Below are positions 17,298 to 25,570 of a DNA stretch of 26,337 bases, piece after piece. Under the pieces are notes generated by a model. That model had not been told where the DNA came from and did no database searches. It worked only from the letters and a program-made list of their open reading frames with translations. A program made the position numbers and the translations under genes. Each line of letters begins with the position of its first letter. The first letter of the stretch is position 1. Source of the stretch: Minisyncoccota bacterium (GTDB lineage: Bacteria > Patescibacteriota > Minisyncoccia > Phycocordibacterales > UBA9973); the NCBI GenBank assembly GCA_017984185.1, contig JAGNZX010000001.1:1-26337 (forward strand), written 5' to 3'.

Positions 17298-18359
17298 ATG
17301 CAAACAAAAATAACCAAACTACCGAAGAGCGAAATCGAAATCGAGGGAGAGCTAGATGCTGATGTCTTTGAGACTTATTATGCTCGTGCTTTAAAAAAAA
17401 TTGGGGAAAATGTAGAGATCGATGGGTTTAGAAAAGGCAAAGTTCCAGAAAATATCTTAAACACCAAAGTACCAGAAATAGCCATCTTGGAAGAAATGGC
17501 CCAACTAGCCTTAAATGAACACTACCCCAAAATACTAGACGAGGAAAAAATAGATGCTATAAGTCGTCCAGAAATTTCGATCACCAAATTGGCTCGTAAA
17601 AATCCACTTGGATTTAAGATAAAAACAGCGACATTGCCAGTGATAAAACTTTCTGACTATAAAAAACTAGCTAAAAAAATACTATCCGAAATAACTGAAA
17701 AGGATAAAGACGTAACTGTGACTGATGAAGAATTGGAAAATACAATTCTAGACATACGAAAATCTCGTGCACCTAAAATAGACATGAAAGATATCCCGGA
17801 AGTTGCCAAGGATGGCGCCGAGGGTAAATTACCGGAGCCCGAACTTCCAGAATTCAATGATGAGTTCGTAAAAGCTCTTGGTCCGTTTGAAGGAATTGAG
17901 GATTTCAAAACAAAGCTAAAAGAAAACATTGGTGTAGAAAAAGTAAACACACTCAAAGAAAAAACCAGAGTAAAGATAATCGAGAAAATAATCGAAGAAG
18001 CTGAACTCGAAGTGCCAGATATTTTGACAGAAATCGAAGTAGATAAAATTCTCTACAAAATGGAGTCTGATATTTCGCAAATGGGTCTGCAGTTTGAAGA
18101 ATACCTAAAACATCTAAAAAAAACTCGTGAGGAACTACGGGGAGAATTTAGAAAAGATGGAGAAAAAAAGGCAAAGCTAGCTCTTATCTTAAATGAAATA
18201 GCTAAGATAGAAAAAATTGTGGCTAGTCCGGAGGCTGTGGCACAAGAAGTAGCACACATTCTCGAGCACTACAAAGAAGCTGACCCGGAACGAGCTCAAA
18301 TGCACGCGGAAAATGTCCTCACCAACGAAATGATTTTCAATTTCTTGGAAAATCAGTAG
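17298..18359 (+). CDS. tig: Trigger factor lacking the FKBP/PPIase domain
   Basis: Ribosome-binding signature IDGFRKGKVP. VTDEELE..I..IR is followed after only ~25 aa by ELPEFNDEFVK; C-terminal chaperone domain; 353 aa. Confidence 0.92.
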   Translation: MQTKITKLPKSEIEIEGELDADVFETYYARALKKIGENVEIDGFRKGKVPENILNTKVPEIAILEEMAQLALNEHYPKILDEEKIDAISRPEISITKLARKNPLGFKIKTATLPVIKLSDYKKLAKKILSEITEKDKDVTVTDEELENTILDIRKSRAPKIDMKDIPEVAKDGAEGKLPEPELPEFNDEFVKALGPFEGIEDFKTKLKENIGVEKVNTLKEKTRVKIIEKIIEEAELEVPDILTEIEVDKILYKMESDISQMGLQFEEYLKHLKKTREELRGEFRKDGEKKAKLALILNEIAKIEKIVASPEAVAQEVAHILEHYKEADPERAQMHAENVLTNEMIFNFLENQ

Positions 18360-18362
18360 TCT

Positions 18363-19280
18363 CTAAAGTCCAAAAACGTGAAGCAAAAGCGCCATCCGAG
18401 TATACAGGCCATTTTGTGCTTGCCGGAAATATGCAGCACGTGAATCCGAATCTATTTTAGGATCAATTTCATTCACTCGAGGTAAGGGATGCATAATAAT
18501 TGCCTCTTTTTTTAACTTTTTAACATGCTCGGTCTTCAACAAAAATGCGTCTTTAACTTTCTCATAATCAGCCACATTTTTAAAACGCTCTTTTTGGACT
18601 CGAGTCATGTATAAAACATCAATCTTTGGCAAAACTTCATCGAGGCTAGCGAGTTCTTTAAAGTTTACCTTGCTCTTAATCAAAGATTGTCGATAAGCAT
18701 CGGCCAAAACTAACTCTTTGGGCGAAATAAAATAAAAAGTATTATTTGGGTAAAGATTTAACATCAACACCAGGGAACGAAGGGTTCGGCTATTTAAGAC
18801 ATCACCCACAAAAGCCACAGACAAACCGTTTAACTTGCCAAATTCTTTCTGGATTGTTAGCAAATCTAAAATACCTTGCGATGGATGTTCGTTTGCCCCA
18901 TCCCCAGCATTAACGAGTGGTTTAGTTGTAACTTTTGCCGCTGCTTCGAGTGCGCCATCTTTTGGGTGACGAATAACAATTGCGTCAGCATACGAACAAA
19001 GCATGCGAGTGGTGTCTTCGATTGTTTCACCTTTATATGTCGAAGAGTTGACCATTGCATTTTCTGCCGAGATTACTTGTGCTCCGAGCTTTAGAGCCGC
19101 GGTCTCAAAAGACAAACGTGTCCGAGTTGAAGGTTCAAAAAAAATACAGGCTACTATTTTATCTTGCAAAAGTTTTTTTACTTTACCACTCTTGCATTGT
19201 TTCTCCATCAACAAGGCTCTAGCTAAAATTTTTTCTATATCATTTTTATTAAATTGTTTTGCCGACAATATATGATTCAT
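18363..19280 (-). CDS. pyrB: Aspartate carbamoyltransferase catalytic subunit
   Basis: FFEPSTRTRLSFE, KGETIED, VIRHP, NAGDGANEHPSQ, YMTRVQKERF and MHPLPRVNEI motifs. Confidence 0.97.
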   Translation of the reverse strand: MNHILSAKQFNKNDIEKILARALLMEKQCKSGKVKKLLQDKIVACIFFEPSTRTRLSFETAALKLGAQVISAENAMVNSSTYKGETIEDTTRMLCSYADAIVIRHPKDGALEAAAKVTTKPLVNAGDGANEHPSQGILDLLTIQKEFGKLNGLSVAFVGDVLNSRTLRSLVLMLNLYPNNTFYFISPKELVLADAYRQSLIKSKVNFKELASLDEVLPKIDVLYMTRVQKERFKNVADYEKVKDAFLLKTEHVKKLKKEAIIMHPLPRVNEIDPKIDSDSRAAYFRQAQNGLYTRMALLLHVFGL

Positions 19281-19284
19281 ATTT

Positions 19285-22200
19285 TTAATTTATATATTCT
19301 TTATACGACTTAATTTCTAAATCTTTTAAATTATACCTATCTAGAGCCTTAATAAAAGCACGGGCTAAGTGTAGATCCGTAAAAAGAGGGATCTGATTAT
19401 CGACCGTAGCTCGACGAATCCGAAAACCATCAGTCTCCACTTGTCGCACTTGGCCTCCCGTCTTACTTAAATTTACCACAAAAGCTATACTCTTATTCTC
19501 AACAACATCTAAAACATTCGGTGATGCTTGAGATGCCTTACGAACAATCTTACACCCAACACCTTGTTTTTGTAAAAATTCTGCCGTCGTATCAGTCGCA
19601 AAAATATCATACCCAAGTTTAACCAATATTTTTGCTGTTTCTAAGAACTTGGCTTTGTTTATTTCGCCACCCAGAGAGAGTAAGACTGTTTTCATTTCAA
19701 AATCAAATTTATTTGTGCTTAATATAGATTTAAGTAATGCTTCATCATAATCTCGGCCAAAACAAGCCACTTCTCCCGTGGAAGACATTTCGACCCGAAG
19801 CACCGGATCAGCTCCGAGCAATCTGGCAAAAGAAAATTGGGAGGATTTCACAACCACAGCCTTTGGGTATATAAATTTATGTTGTTTGGCATTTCCAAAA
19901 AAACTATCCACAACTTTCTCTGGAAAATTGGTATTCATGGCTTTAGACAAAAAAGGGAAAGTTCGACTCGCTCGGAGGTTTACTTCGATGACATAAGGAA
20001 TATTATCTTTGACTAAAAATTGAATATTTATCGGGCCGGTCACTGCAAGTTCACGAGTTATTTTTTTAGAAATTTCTCGCAACTGAAATTCTGTTGAAGC
20101 ATATACTCTTTGTGTTGGATACACTATTGTCGCATCCCCCGAATGCACTCCAGCGTTTTCTACGTGTTCAGAAATACCATAAATCACAAGCTCCCCATTT
20201 TGGGCCACGGCATCAAACTCCAGTTCTTTGGCTGTTTCAATATATTTAGAAATTGTGACTGGGTGTGCCGGAGAAAGTACTGCGGCCTTGGTAACAAAAT
20301 CTTTCAATTGCTCATTGTCGTAACAAACTCGCATCGCTGCACCAGAAAGAACATAAGACGGTCGAACCAACACTGGAAAACTTTCTTGTTCAGTAAACTT
20401 TATGGCTTGGGTCATGTTTGTAAAACTCGTCCATCTTGGTTGCAAAATATTTAATTTATCTAGAATTGCCGAAAATTTATTTCTATCTTCGGCTCTATCT
20501 ATATCTTCTGCCTTAGTTCCCAAAATCTGGAAACCAGCACTGGTCAAAGATTGAGCCAGGTTATTTGGACGTTGACCCCCCACAGAAACAACCAAACCAT
20601 ACGAATCTTCAAATTCAAAAATATCAGCCACAGTTTCGAAAGATAAGTTTTCAAAATATAGCCTATCTGACATATCATAATCTGTAGACACAGTTTCGGG
20701 ATTACAATTTACAATAATTGACTGTTTTTTGTATTTTCTAAAAGCCATAGCCGTATACACACAAGACCAATCAAATTCAACCGAAGACCCGATATGGTAA
20801 GGCCCACTACCCAAAACCATCACAGCTTTTTTGCCTAATGGCAAAACATCGTTATGTTTTCCGTGATAAGTTAGATACAAATAATTTGTTTTAGCTGGCA
20901 CTTCTCCCGCCAAGGTGTCCACTGTAAAAACGGAAGGCTTTATTTTTAAATTTTTTCGTAATTCACGAATCTCTAATTCAGTTTTTCTACAAAGTCTCCC
21001 AATTTTTTTATCAGAAAAACCAGCTTGCTTTAATTCTAAAATTATTTCGTGAGAAAATTTATTTTTCTGTGTTTTAAGAAACTTTTGTTCTAACTTAACA
21101 ATATTTTCAATACGGTGTAAAAACCAGGGATCAATGCCGGTAATTTTGTATATGGCGTCCACGCTCAATCCATCTTTCATGCTTTCAGCTACTGCAAAAA
21201 GTCTGCGTGGGGTGGGTGTGGTTAAAAATTTATGTATTTCTTTTTTATCAGAAAAACCATTATCTGTCACTCCTTCAGCTATACCAGATTGCATGCGAAC
21301 AGCTTTCTGCAAGGCTTCTTCGAAGCTCCGCCCAATAGCCATCACTTCCCCGACAGACTTCATGGCACTACCAATACGCTCAACAGCACCAACAAACTTT
21401 ACCAAATCCCATCTAGGCATTTTTACTACTACATAATCTAAGGCTGGTTCAAAAAAACTTTGGGTTACTTTCGTGATTTTATTTTCTATCTGAATTAAAC
21501 TTTTTCCAAGAGCAAGCTTGGCTGCCACATAAGCCAAAGGGTAACCGGTGGCTTTGGAGGCCAAAGCACTCGAGCGAGACAAACGTGCATTGACCTCGAT
21601 AACAAAATAATCCAATTCCCCATTTTTTGGATTTGGATTTAAGGCATACTGCACATTGCACTCCCCAACTATTTTTAAACTCTGCACAATTTTTATACTA
21701 GCCTCACGCAGACCGTGGTATTCGGCATTGGAAAGAGTCTGACTTGGAGCCACCACGATTGAATCTCCGGTATGTATGCCGAGCGGATCAAAATTTTCCA
21801 TATTACACACGGTTACAATATTCCCAAAAGCATCTCGAACAACTTCGTATTCAATTTCTTTAAAATGATGCAAATATTTTTCGATTAAAACTTGTGGTGA
21901 CACAGCCAAAGCACCTTTCACAATTTCTTCCAGTTCTTTTAGATTGTTGGCTACTCCGGATTTTTGACCACCGAGAGCAAAAGCTGCTCGAACCATCAAG
22001 GGATATCCAATCCTATTTGCTTCAACGATAGCTTCTTTCATATTTGTGGCGCTACCGGAAGGAGGCACTGGTATATTCATATTTCTCAAATGTTCGGCAA
22101 ATTTTTCCCTGTCTTCGGTCAGTTCTATTGAAGCCACTGGTGTCCCCAAAACTTCAACGTTATATTTTTTCAAAGTCCCTTTTTCGTAAAGCTTGAGACC

Positions 22201-22491
22201 ACAATTAAGTGCGGTCTGTCCACCAAAAGACAACATAATACCGTCGGGTCTTTCCTTGGCAATAACTTTTTCTACAAAATAATCATTGACCGGTAAAAAA
22301 TACACTTCATCGGCCAGAGTTTTTGAAGTTTGAAAAGTAGCAATGTTTGGGTTTATTAAGATGACTTTAATTTTTTCTTCTTTGAGTGCCTTGATGGCCT
22401 GGCTACCAGAATAATCAAATTCTCCGGCTTCACCGATTTTCAATGCCCCGCTACCAAGTACTAAAATTTTTTTAAATTTTTTATTTTTCAT
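19285..22491 (-). CDS. carB: Carbamoyl-phosphate synthase large subunit
   Basis: [71 protein letters not shown] and a C-terminal MGS-like domain; 1068 aa. Confidence 0.98.
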   Translation of the reverse strand: [1068 protein letters not shown]

Positions 22492-23575
22492 TTGTTTTTT
22501 GGTACTTTTTTATTTGTTCTAAAAAATAATCGAATATAAAATCAGTATCGGTGGGACCAGGGTTGTCTTCCGGATGAAATTGCACCGACATGAATGGCAA
22601 GCTTTGATGAATAATTCCTTCGTTGGTATTATCATTCGCATTATAAAACCATTCTCGGAAATTATTTGGGATTTTACCGACAGCAAAACCGTGATTTTGG
22701 GTAGTCAAAAAGCACTTTGTGCCGGTCTTTTCATTTTTTACCCTTTCTACTACTGGTTGATTTTGACTACGATGACCAAATGGTAATTTGTAAGTATTTC
22801 CACCTGAAGCTAAAGCTAAAATCTGATTACCCAAGCATATACCCAAAATTGGTATATTTTTTTGCATAATTTTTTGGACATTTTTTATTGTAGCCTGGAC
22901 CATTTTCGGATCTCCAGGCCCATTTGAAATAACCACACCTGAAAATTTAAAATCTAACTTGGTCACATCTGTATCCCACGGAACCACAACCACTTTTACA
23001 CCCCTTTGAACCATTCGACGAATAATATTTTTCTTAGCCCCGCAATCAATAAGCACGATTGTATTTTCTCCCTCGCCACAAGACAAGATTTTCTTGGTAC
23101 TAACTTCAGCCACTAAATTTCTTTTATTTGGGTCTTCGAATTTTATATCTGTACCAGAAGTATTGGTTAAAATTTTACCCAGAGTTGCCCCCTCGTCTCG
23201 TAATTTTAAAGTTAAAGCTCGCGTATCTTTTATCTCTAATGCTGGAACACCTTCTTTTTTAAGCCAGGCCCCGAGCGTCATTTCGCTCGCATGGTGTGAG
23301 GGTGTGTCTATGTAGCTTGAAACAATCAGCCCGGCCACTTGAATTTTGTCTGATTCAAATGATTCTTTGTTTGGCACACCATAACTACCCACCAAAGGAA
23401 AAGTTAATACTAAAATCTGTCCACGAAAAGAAGGATCGGTTAAAGCTTCTGGATAGCCCACCATACCTGTCGCAAAAACTACTTCACCTGAAATAGATTT
23501 CAGAGCACCAAAACTTTTTCCTTCAAAAGTTGAACCGTCTTTAAATATTAATTTACCTGTTTTATCGTTTGTCAT
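22481..23575 (-). CDS. carA: Carbamoyl-phosphate synthase small (glutaminase) subunit
   Basis: GEVVFATGMVGYPEALTDPS, SNGPGDP, GICLGNQ (catalytic Cys), TTQNHGFAV and QFHPE (His/Glu). Start taken as ATG 23575 (MTNDK); 23587 is an alternative. Confidence 0.96.
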   Translation of the reverse strand: MTNDKTGKLIFKDGSTFEGKSFGALKSISGEVVFATGMVGYPEALTDPSFRGQILVLTFPLVGSYGVPNKESFESDKIQVAGLIVSSYIDTPSHHASEMTLGAWLKKEGVPALEIKDTRALTLKLRDEGATLGKILTNTSGTDIKFEDPNKRNLVAEVSTKKILSCGEGENTIVLIDCGAKKNIIRRMVQRGVKVVVVPWDTDVTKLDFKFSGVVISNGPGDPKMVQATIKNVQKIMQKNIPILGICLGNQILALASGGNTYKLPFGHRSQNQPVVERVKNEKTGTKCFLTTQNHGFAVGKIPNNFREWFYNANDNTNEGIIHQSLPFMSVQFHPEDNPGPTDTDFIFDYFLEQIKKYQKTNEK

Positions 23576-24791
23576 AAATTTTTCCATTAACCATTGTCAT
23601 CACCACGCTACCAGGAAATGTTACCCCGGAAAATGGTGACCACCCGCATTTTGTTTTTAATACATTTTGATTGATTGTAATTGGTTTACTCATATCTATT
23701 ACGGTCAACGAGCCCACAAACCCCTCTCTCAACTCTCCATATTTATTTTTAGAAAATTGATTAAAAAAAACACCAGGATTAACACTACAAACTCGTGCAA
23801 CTTTTTCAGCTGTGAAACCGTGTTCTTTGATTAACCACGTGGTAAAAGGCCCAAAAGTATCAAGATGGGGCATACCAGAAATACCTTTTTCTTTTTCTTG
23901 CATTGTATGCGGAGCATGATCTGTGGCTAGAAAATCAATACCCCCATTGCTTAGTGCTTCGATTAGAGCCAACCTGTTTTCTTTTGTTTGTCTAATTGGC
24001 GGATTCACTTGTAAATCTTTTTTATTTAAATTTGGCATAGTTTCATCAAAAAAAAGATGGTGCGGGGTAATTTCTACAGTTACATTTACTCCGCGATTTT
24101 TGGCCTCGGTAATTTTACGGACTGCTTCTATGGTTGAAGCGTGACAAATTTTTCCATTGATTTTATATTTTTCAATTAAATACAGAGCAAAATCTACTGC
24201 GGAAATTTCAGCCGAAGCTGGACGTCTAGCTTCGTGGGTCGAAGCATTTTTGTTTTCTTCTAGTTGTTTGGGGTCTTCGCAATGAAAACTAACATTTTCT
24301 CCAGAATATTTAGCTATAGCTTTTTCCAAATCTTCTTGATTGGTAAAAAATAATTCACCAATCGAATGCCCCATAAAAACTTTGTATGGAACTTTTTTTG
24401 AAAGAGGTTTAGTGTTATTCCCAATACCAGCATACAAAACAATTGGTACAACAGAATTTTTAGTTAATAAATTCTTGTCGTCATAACTTTTATCGTCGAT
24501 TGGTGGTGTCAGATTGTTTGGCATATCCAAGAATGCCACAACTCCCCCATTTACTGCCGCTTGTGAAGCAGAAATAAAATCTTCTTTATGATCTTGACTA
24601 TGATCGACACACTCTCTGGCGTGCACATGCAAATCTATAAATCCCGGGAAAATTAATTCTTCTGTAAAAACAAAATCGGCCTCACCTTTTGTTTCGCAAA
24701 TTTTTGCAATCAAACCAGTGGTTTGGTCGATTTCAATTCGCCCTCTTTTGGTCTGACTACTATTTACAATTAATCCTTCAATACTAAGCAT
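23562..24791 (-). CDS. pyrC: Dihydroorotase (type I, multifunctional-complex type)
   Basis: PGFIDLHVHARE, DMPN, KVFM, FHCED, CHAST, EITPHHL, NPPIR, ATDHAPHT and TKCGWSPF motifs, plus operon context. Annotation as allantoinase is less likely given that context. Confidence 0.9.
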   Translation of the reverse strand: MLSIEGLIVNSSQTKRGRIEIDQTTGLIAKICETKGEADFVFTEELIFPGFIDLHVHARECVDHSQDHKEDFISASQAAVNGGVVAFLDMPNNLTPPIDDKSYDDKNLLTKNSVVPIVLYAGIGNNTKPLSKKVPYKVFMGHSIGELFFTNQEDLEKAIAKYSGENVSFHCEDPKQLEENKNASTHEARRPASAEISAVDFALYLIEKYKINGKICHASTIEAVRKITEAKNRGVNVTVEITPHHLFFDETMPNLNKKDLQVNPPIRQTKENRLALIEALSNGGIDFLATDHAPHTMQEKEKGISGMPHLDTFGPFTTWLIKEHGFTAEKVARVCSVNPGVFFNQFSKNKYGELREGFVGSLTVIDMSKPITINQNVLKTKCGWSPFSGVTFPGSVVMTMVNGKIYDKR

Positions 24792-24909
24792 AAAATTTAG
24801 ACAAAAAAATAACCCCGACAGGGGCTTTTGTAATAACAGAAATATTAAATTCAGAAATAAAGTATTGTGAGGTGTTTTTAGTATTTACCTTTTTTATTAC
24901 TTTACACAT
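24784..24909 (-). CDS. Putative 41-aa pyr leader peptide (pyrL-like)
   Basis: ATG 24909 lies 8 nt after a TGc-TAACAT box. The ORF MCKVIKKVNTKNTSQYFISEFNISVITKAPVGVIFLSKFYA runs through the hairpin and its TAG overlaps the pyrC ATG. Confidence 0.5.
   Translation of the reverse strand: MCKVIKKVNTKNTSQYFISEFNISVITKAPVGVIFLSKFYA
24803..24827 (-). terminator. Attenuator-type intrinsic terminator in the pyr operon leader
   Basis: Minus strand AAGCCCC-UGUC-GGGGUU-A-UUUUUUU ends 11 nt before the pyrC ATG. No convergent gene exists that it could terminate. Confidence 0.65.
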
Positions 24910-24917
24910 TAGGTAAG

Positions 24918-24958
24918 ATGTTAGCACGGCTTGAAAAAGTTTGCAATTCATATATACT
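24918..24958. promoter_or_regulatory. Overlapping divergent promoters for the pyr operon and clpP
   Basis: Minus: TTGCAA (24941-24946), N17, TAACAT (24918-24923). Plus: TTGAAA (24931-24936), N16, TATACT (24953-24958), which lies 6 nt before the clpP ATG. Confidence 0.6.
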
Positions 24959-24964
24959 TGGAGC

Positions 24965-25570
24965 ATGTTAATACCCACAGTTATTGAAAAAAGTCAGTTT
25001 GGTGAGCGAGCTTATGATATTTACTCAAGGCTTTTGCGTGAACGTATTATATTTTTAGCTGGCCCCATAGACGACCACACAGCAAATATCGTCATAGCTC
25101 AACTTCTATTCTTGGAATCCGAAGATTCAAAGAAAGATATTTACTTATATGTAAACTCCCCAGGCGGATCAGTCACCGCAACTATGGCTATTGTCGACAC
25201 AATGAACCATGTTCGCCCAGATGTAGCTACTTTCTGTGTTGGTATTGCTGCTTCCGGTGGAGCAATAGTCCTTTCGTCTGGCAAAAAGGGTAAAAGATTC
25301 ATTTTACCAAACGCTGAAGTCATGATTCACCAACCCCTAGGTGGCGTCGAAGGTCAAGCCACCGACATAGCAATTACTGCCAAGCATATCTTGAAAACTC
25401 GTGACAATCTAAACAAGCTTTTAGCTAAAAACACTGGAAAAGCCCTATCTCAGGTAGAAAAAGACGTTGAAAGAGACTTTTTTATGGACGCTGAAGAATC
25501 TAAAAAATACGGTATTATCGACGAAATTGTGACCAAATCCAAGGCTCCAGTGGTTGACAAAAAGGCCTAA
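24965..25570 (+). CDS. clpP: ATP-dependent Clp protease proteolytic subunit
   Basis: [34 protein letters not shown] (catalytic Ser), VMIHQPLGG (His) and [10 protein letters not shown] (Asp). Start moved to ATG 24965 (MLIPTVIE). Confidence 0.97.

Follow-up and report, generated by a model that had tools for sequence, protein, structure and literature searches.

A probable ribosome-dependent attenuator of the pyrBI kind on a leaderless or near-leaderless open reading frame ahead of pyrC in a member of the Patescibacteria

Here we describe a candidate regulatory leader of the pyrimidine operon pyrC-carA-carB-pyrB, located on the minus strand of contig JAGNZX010000001.1 of a Minisyncoccota bacterium (Patescibacteriota; assembly GCA_017984185.1). 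The stretch analysed, 26,337 nucleotides and called the window below, is one entire contig of this 531-kb assembly (the source genome, G000), which is 78% complete. The leader comprises a promoter, a short open reading frame (ORF) that runs through an intrinsic terminator, and a stop codon of this frame that overlaps the start of pyrC. Judged from these features and their conservation, it is very probably an attenuator in which read-through depends on a translating ribosome. The reading that we favour as probable is more specific: an attenuator of the pyrBI (pyrL) type whose leader ORF is leaderless or nearly so, with low uridine triphosphate (UTP) as the likeliest cause of slowing of RNA polymerase. 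That UTP is the signal is suggested by a gradient of U along the leader and by conserved third-position U, and we consider this somewhat better than an even guess.

The comparative set consisted of the pyrC loci found in 50 of 200 sampled species of the same genus, and the upstream regions of all 50 were read (genome G076 enters only into this tally, and no locus that was read derives from it). The full layout, namely a TGnTAnnAT box, 8 nt, ATG, a frame of 22-58 codons that is first U-poor and then U-rich, and a GC hairpin followed by T7, is present in 34 of the 50 loci. Twelve others have the same promoter and a leaderless ORF of 6-13 codons overlapping the pyrC start, with no hairpin; in three, pyrC itself occupies the leaderless position (GTG in L006 and L023, ATG with the usual 6-nt spacing in L038), and in the last one pyrC lies within a longer operon. 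Neighbouring genes vary between the loci. The element is also carried by the sister genus (L055), and among 400 genomes of the class this pyrC is confined to this family. An alignment of upstream regions in relatives had been proposed by an earlier, sequence-only reading of the locus; once made, it showed the frame, the U-tract and the hairpin to be conserved in these 34 loci, 32 of which were parsed. All counts of frames, stops and composition given below refer to these 32 fully parsed long pyrC leaders.

Several counts indicate that the leader frame is translated. From the ATG up to the end of the T-tract (1070 codons in the 32 loci) there are 6 stop codons in the frame of the ATG versus 43 and 58 in the other two frames; correspondingly, 26 loci have no stop through the T-tract in the ATG frame, versus 7 and 3 in the others. 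Each of the 26 read-through frames ends between -10 and +10 of the pyrC ATG or is fused to pyrC, the most common arrangement being ATGnnTAR. At one locus (L004, genome G013) leader and pyrC form a single in-frame fusion, the pyrC ATG being replaced by ATA, and at another (L030, genome G053) pyrC has a 12-codon in-frame extension. In six loci (L016, L022, L042, L047, L052, L053), the frame remains open through GC-rich hairpin inserts of 48-60 nt located after the terminator, resulting in frames of 45-58 codons. Since stops are depleted only in the ATG frame, and since this frame stays open through the inserts, translation of the leader is strongly supported, and the pattern would be hard to explain otherwise. 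Translational coupling of the leader ORF to pyrC via the overlapping stop and start is likewise supported by the positions of the frame ends. Thus two proposals of the sequence-only reading, a translated leader ORF crossing the terminator and its coupling to pyrC, are supported by the comparison.

GC-rich palindromes (GCCCGCC..GGCGGGC, CCTGCC..GGCAGG) were observed between the terminator and pyrC in L007, L008, L016, L021, L022, L042, L047, L050, L052, and L053, and the same palindromes occur upstream of the promoters in L013, L041, and L054. They look like a REP-like (repetitive extragenic palindrome) or miniature mobile repeat family, and the leader frame usually remains open through them.

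A translated frame could also encode a functional small hydrophobic protein, the hairpin being an ordinary terminator or insulator and the overlap incidental. Codons 2-12 do show a mild coding-like pattern, with a slight excess of variation at third positions (0.55, 0.67, and 0.90 for the three positions), and the C-terminal half of the peptide is hydrophobic. However, hairpin and T-tract together determine the C-terminal sequence, the peptides range from 22 to 58 residues in length, with frames cut at the hairpin in several lineages, and the hairpin occurs in all three phases (0, 1, and 2) with respect to the frame. Moreover, there is no upstream co-directional gene that would need a terminator: both upstream neighbours, clpP and rny, lie on the plus strand, so that no other gene can use this terminator, as the sequence-only reading had maintained. 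We therefore regard a small-protein function as very improbable.

The coordinates of the locus are collected in Table 1. With the minus strand read, the promoter, the ATG, the T counts, the hairpin, and the overlap of the leader stop with pyrC all lie where the sequence-only reading had placed them, and the terminator was also recovered by an independent terminator scan.

Table 1. Features of the pyrC leader and its surroundings, in window positions
Feature	Position	Strand	Remarks
-35 hexamer TTGCAA	24946-24941	-	read directly; TTGC-type -35 at equal distance in relatives
Extended -10, TGC-TAACAT	24926-24918 (TAACAT 24923-24918)	-	read directly; 17-nt spacer from -35
8-nt spacer CTTACCTA, ending Y-A	24917-24910	-	predicted start at A 24910 or A 24909
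Leader ORF, 41 sense codons and TAG	24909-24784 (ATG 24909-24907, TAG 24786-24784)	-	read directly
U-poor, A-rich early leader, codons 6-15	24894-24865	-	4 T in 30 nt
U-rich block, codons 17-26	24861-24832	-	19 T in 30 nt; conserved core AATATT-TCT-GTT at 24846-24835
Intrinsic terminator: stem AGCCCC/GGGGTT, loop TGTC, A and T7	24826-24803 (hairpin 24826-24811, A and T7 24810-24803)	-	
ATGCTTAG, pyrC ATG (24791) overlapping leader stop	24791-24784	-	read directly
Operon pyrC-carA-carB-pyrB	18363-24791	-	NCBIfam matches; genes overlap or lie 4 nt apart
Divergent clpP promoter TTGAAA-16-TATACT, 6 nt, ATG 24965	24931-24967	+	leaderless clpP

RNAalifold, applied to the 32 leaders and to a group of 12 that align well, recovered the terminator as the sole conserved RNA structure. 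Its stem core CCCC/GGGG is constant, the outer pairs switch among G-U, A-U, and G-C with a few two-sided changes, and the loops vary freely; the hairpin resembles the other terminators of the source genome in type, and its T-run ends 11 nt before pyrC. The leader of the window as a whole folds no better than shuffled sequence (z = -0.7). With no conserved helix beyond the terminator and a fold no better than that of shuffled sequence, a riboswitch or an antiterminator was rejected. A search of the whole window against Rfam at gathering thresholds gave no match, and hence no match to a PyrR-binding site. The sequence-only reading had stated that PyrR is absent; consistent with this, no PyrR (NF003545) was found in the source genome, at its 78% completeness, or in five complete relatives, while control genomes were positive. 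Control by Rho through the A/C-rich, G-poor early leader was considered and rejected, as Rho was not found in five genomes; NusG is present.

Within the source genome, a search with the leader alignment (nhmmer) returned only this locus and unrelated terminators, and a pattern scan for other units of a leaderless upstream ORF plus a terminator yielded no other convincing case. One unit observed on contig C43 (minus strand, about 3750-3660) has a TGCTATACT box, about 75 nt, and a GCCCC-TTCG-GGGGC terminator with T5, with no convincing ORF, and is a candidate small RNA.

The composition of the leader changes sharply along its length. At +10 to +39, T amounts to 12-23%, versus 31% in the genome, and this early part is A-rich; the middle is A/C-rich, with 30-36% C; and the final 30 nt before the hairpin contain 43-62% T, the peak of 62% being at -20 to -11. 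G stays at 5-15% along the entire leader. In windows of 25 nt, the median T count is 4 early versus 13.5 late, and the late count exceeds the early one in all 32 loci; for comparison, 13 T per 25 nt corresponds to the 95th percentile of the genome, and pyrL of Escherichia coli has 10 T of 25 in the corresponding late window. Third codon positions of the U block are conserved as T (entropy 0.53 versus 0.95 in pyrC), and equally conserved as the first and second positions. The ATATT...TTTCT core of the block is kept in loci where it has a different codon phase (L005, L008, L018), which indicates a constraint on the nucleotides rather than on the peptide.

A constraint of this kind would also be expected if a trans-acting RNA-binding protein read the AUAUU(Y3R)UUUCU block and modulated pausing, termination, or leader translation, the ORF serving only for coupling. 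The block is indeed the most conserved part of the leader besides the start and the hairpin, and its retention in another codon phase in the three loci just named fits such a site. On the other hand, the locus has no linked gene for a candidate regulator, the neighbours differing between loci, the search for PyrR was negative, and binding of a protein leaves the open frame through the hairpin and the later inserts unexplained. We consider this mechanism improbable.

As a separate observation, the near-invariant AATATT (window 24841-24846) often forms a TATAAT or TAATAT hexamer resembling a -10 box, about 55 nt into the transcript. Neither a -35 box nor TGn accompanies this hexamer, and the sequence is CAATAT in two loci; its role could be that of an internal start or of a sigma-dependent pause signal.

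The geometry of the start is equally conserved. The TGnTAnnAT box occurs at 46 of the 50 pyrC loci, and its distance to the ATG is exactly 8 nt in 44 of these 46 and in all 15 leaders of the same family that precede other genes (see below). The 8 nt end in Y-A before the ATG in about 60 loci, giving the invariant plan TGnTAnnAT, six bases, Y, A, ATG. In the source genome, 102 of 500 long ORFs, clpP beside the leader among them, have TAnnnT exactly 6 nt before their first ATG, 58 of the 102 with TGn, and a Shine-Dalgarno (SD)-like sequence precedes only 33 of the 500; pyrC has none. As far as can be predicted from such signals, the genome is dominated by leaderless-type gene starts. When TGnTAnnnT boxes are counted before ORFs of at least 60 amino acids, there are 69 cases at a spacing of 6 nt, 33 at 7, 6 at 8, and 15 at 9, each other spacing being represented by 1-11 cases, that is, by background.

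The 8 nt of the pyrC leader thus differ from the usual 6-7 nt of leaderless genes, and the transcript may therefore begin 1-2 nt ahead of its AUG. The sequence-only reading had described the upstream ORF as apparently leaderless. This fits an ATG that follows the -10 box by 8 nt with no room for an SD sequence, but the spacing is not the usual one, so that a near-leaderless message is also possible. The transcript probably starts as 5'-AAUG, or the start switches among Y, A, and A, and the leader mRNA would accordingly be leaderless or have a 5' leader of 1-2 nt.

With its ATG 2 nt further from the -10 box than at ordinary leaderless genes of this genome, the choice of the start site might itself be part of the sensor. 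Start-site switching of this kind is known from pyrC and codBA of E. coli. Here, abundant CTP or UTP would favour starting at the pyrimidine (position 7), producing a 2-nt leader that would be a poor leaderless template; the ribosome would then lag and the terminator would win. Starting at A (position 8 or 9) would produce a 5' (A)AUG, prompt translation, and read-through. Joined to an attenuator of the pyrBI type, this would constitute a two-layer sensor of nucleoside triphosphates (NTPs) that requires neither protein nor aptamer, but we consider it doubtful that the start site plays this role.

A further motif was noticed at these promoters. The sequence GTTTTCCAC(T/C)TG adjoins or overlaps the TTGC.. 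of the -35 box at many promoters in this lineage, namely in 18 of the 50 pyrC upstream regions and, in the source genome, at C50:1756, at C50:2984, and on contigs C23, C44, and C60; TTTTCCAC occurs there 61 times versus about 22 expected. Motifs of the GTTTTCCAC type may be UP-like elements or factor-binding sites.

The proposed mechanism of the attenuator is as follows. RNA polymerase would start 7-9 nt after the extended -10 box, so that the mRNA begins with (A)AUG, and a ribosome would load on this 5' AUG without an SD sequence and translate the roughly 40-codon frame. Polymerase would transcribe the GC hairpin and U7 about 95 nt downstream of the start. In the default state the first ribosome would lag behind, the hairpin would form, and transcription would stop before pyrC. 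If polymerase is slowed in the U-rich block, for which low UTP would be the likeliest cause, the ribosome would catch up and cover the 5' arm of the hairpin, and termination would fail. The same ribosome would stop at the codon overlapping the pyrC AUG and re-initiate, which would explain how pyrC is translated without an SD sequence. Two premises of this scheme have been established elsewhere: a ribosome closely following polymerase blocks a terminator, whereas terminators located within 100 nt of the beginning of a coding region are otherwise functional (PMC4824070), and attenuation of pyrBI requires tight coupling across pyrL (PMC5021804).

The leader is not restricted to pyrC. A covariance model of the leader gave one match each in 34 of 150 genomes of the genus, and the first gene downstream is pyrC in 20 of them, argH in 5, carA in 4, a gene for a 281-aa protein resembling class-II aminoacyl-tRNA synthetases (aaRS) in 4, and argG in 1. 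In genome G072, which is outside this tally of 34, the order is leader-argG-argH-pyrC-carA-carB-pyrB. In the 15 leaders preceding genes other than pyrC the frame reaches the hairpin, and 14 of them show the U gradient. From the genes that it precedes, the leader appears to govern a variable set of genes using carbamoyl phosphate or aspartate, and the predicted regulon is wider than de novo pyrimidine synthesis. Operons headed by the leader in L116, L119-L122, and L125-L129 are made up of argG, argH, the 281-aa paralogue of the class-II aaRS catalytic core, and an amidohydrolase gene. In genomes G111 and G072 the leader directly follows pyrF.

Because some of these operons consist of arg genes or contain the aaRS-like gene, and because the leader peptides contain several Asn codons, one may think of a leader peptide that senses charging with Arg, Asn, or Asp, as in trp or his attenuation. 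The evidence goes in the opposite direction. Runs of Arg or Asn codons are lacking in the leaders preceding genes other than pyrC, those of argH and argG having at most two scattered Arg codons, and tandem regulatory codons are lacking in general; no antiterminator or alternative hairpin is conserved; and a ribosome stalled upstream would raise termination, the wrong direction for a biosynthetic operon. On the lack of codon runs amino-acid sensing was rejected, and we hold it to be extremely unlikely.

A related attenuator was observed beyond the genus, in a family from another class of the Candidate Phyla Radiation (CPR; family f137), the pyrC of which is 56-63% identical. In 10 of its 16 loci, pyrC is preceded by a larger hairpin, AACCCCGCCCT..AGGGaaTGGGGTT with T7, ahead of which lies an ORF of 12-18 codons; in 4 of the 6 parsed cases this ORF ends (TAG) in the loop of a two-tier terminator. 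It starts 13-28 nt after the -10 box and is thus not leaderless. As an attenuator also stands before this orthologous pyrC, the unit of ORF and terminator may have travelled with the operon and may be older than the genus studied here, which bears on the independent origin supposed by the sequence-only reading. Seven pyrC leaders of this family (L061, L068, L070, L071, L075, L076, L082) contain the palindrome GTTATCTTAnnnAAGATAAC over the -10 box, which looks like an operator or a 5' hairpin.

Several observations weigh against a pyrBI-type attenuator responding to UTP. First, 6 of the 32 pyrC leaders, like all 5 argH leaders, have a frame that ends at the hairpin foot or within its loop. A ribosome terminating there is still compatible with masking of the 5' arm, and in E. 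coli termination is suppressed when a stop codon lies a few bases ahead of the terminator (PMC4824070). Second, the 8-nt spacing departs from that of most leaderless genes in the genome, as discussed above. Third, instead of a pause tract, the conserved ATATT...TTTCT block could constitute a binding site. Fourth, RNA-labelled sequencing runs yielded no transcript starts or ends: only four or five read-sized contigs were recovered, and the libraries probably contain DNA. One contig from these runs (24740-24902) spans the terminator and another (24829-24967) spans the promoter, and the latter is therefore not a transcript.

Finally, the five tested genomes in which the leader precedes argH or the aaRS-like gene are devoid of pyrB, which fits poorly with a purely pyrimidine signal and lowers our confidence in UTP as the sole or true one (three of these five genomes have pyrF). 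The same attenuator hardware might respond to the general speed of polymerase relative to that of the ribosome, set by any NTP, by growth rate, or by translation capacity, or might merely provide a fixed low read-through. Apart from the argG, argH, carA, and aaRS-like operons headed by the leader, this possibility draws on the C-richness of the middle of the leader and on the lack of runs of regulatory codons in the leader peptides. In contrast, the U gradient, seen in every parsed pyrC leader and in 14 of the 15 others, and the conserved third-position U argue for a need for U specifically. In addition, the amidohydrolase encoded after argH (about 325 aa) is similar to cytosine deaminases (NF005365), so that a link to pyrimidines may persist in these genomes. 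On balance, we consider a signal other than UTP rather unlikely, and retain low UTP as the probable cause of slowing.

The closest known counterpart is the pyrBI leader of E. coli and Salmonella. In both, an approximately 40-codon leader ORF comes after the promoter and runs through a GC hairpin and a U-run just before the first pyrimidine gene, a U-rich tract lies upstream of the hairpin, and there is no antiterminator hairpin, the ribosome itself preventing termination. At the sequence level, the pyrL ORF of E. coli crosses AGCCCC..GGGGCT-T8, and its distance from the ATG to the hairpin, 88 nt, compares with 64-110 nt here. The differences are also clear. The E. coli leader has a 5' untranslated region with an SD sequence, whereas here the ATG follows the -10 box by 8 nt with no space for one; since initiation on the leader is thus not SD-dependent, we class the element as a variant of pyrBI and not as a member by descent. 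The AATTTG start used for reiterative transcription is not present here. The leader stop lies 3 nt before pyrB in E. coli, but overlaps the first gene here, which has no SD sequence. Finally, the operon here is pyrC-carAB-pyrB, and in relatives, leaders of this family additionally precede arg and aaRS-like operons.

Other systems share single traits with the element. At rph-pyrE of E. coli, a ribosome on an upstream frame ending near a terminator controls read-through into a pyrimidine gene, which resembles the loci where the frame stops at the foot or loop of the hairpin (L007, L008, L050, and the argH leaders); the upstream frame of E. coli is, however, the full-length rph and not a dedicated leaderless mini-ORF. 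In PyrR attenuation, used by Bacillus and many others, the terminator likewise lies in the leader of a pyrimidine operon, whereas here no PyrR was found, Rfam gave no match, and anti-terminator and anti-anti-terminator hairpins are not conserved. Leaderless leader ORFs acting in cis are described in Actinobacteria, namely the polycysteine upstream ORFs of mycobacteria and the trp, ilv, and leu leaders of Corynebacterium (bioRxiv 10.1101/834739, PMC3890552). As proposed here, a short ORF at the 5' end of the transcript acts on the downstream operon; the actinobacterial leaders, however, sense an amino acid via codon runs, some of them with alternative hairpins, neither of which is seen here, where the frame crosses the terminator.

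The surroundings of the leader are compact. The clpP promoter and the pyr leader share one intergenic region of 170 bp. At the other end of the operon, tig (plus strand) and pyrB (minus strand) converge with a 3-nt gap (18359-18363) and no terminator between them. The genes pyrD, pyrE, and pyrF are found elsewhere in the source genome, so that the pathway to uridine monophosphate is complete.

Most members of the CPR, or Patescibacteria, cannot be cultured, and to our knowledge almost no cis-regulatory mechanisms have been described in them; no account of attenuators in Saccharibacteria or Patescibacteria was found in the literature. The element extends a known principle and is not a new one. 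It is a compact case, of about 130 nt and with no protein factor, and its natural variants lack the terminator, have leader and pyrC joined, or place pyrC itself in the leaderless position. The presence of the leader at the head of pyr, car, arg, and aaRS-like operons points to shared control of genes consuming carbamoyl phosphate or aspartate. Were start-site switching indeed combined with attenuation, this CPR lineage would possess a protein-free, two-layer sensor of NTPs. Overall, a conserved attenuator that relies on a ribosome following polymerase argues for functional transcription-translation coupling in this lineage of Saccharibacteria type, where loading of the first ribosome would take place at a 5'-terminal AUG instead of an SD site.

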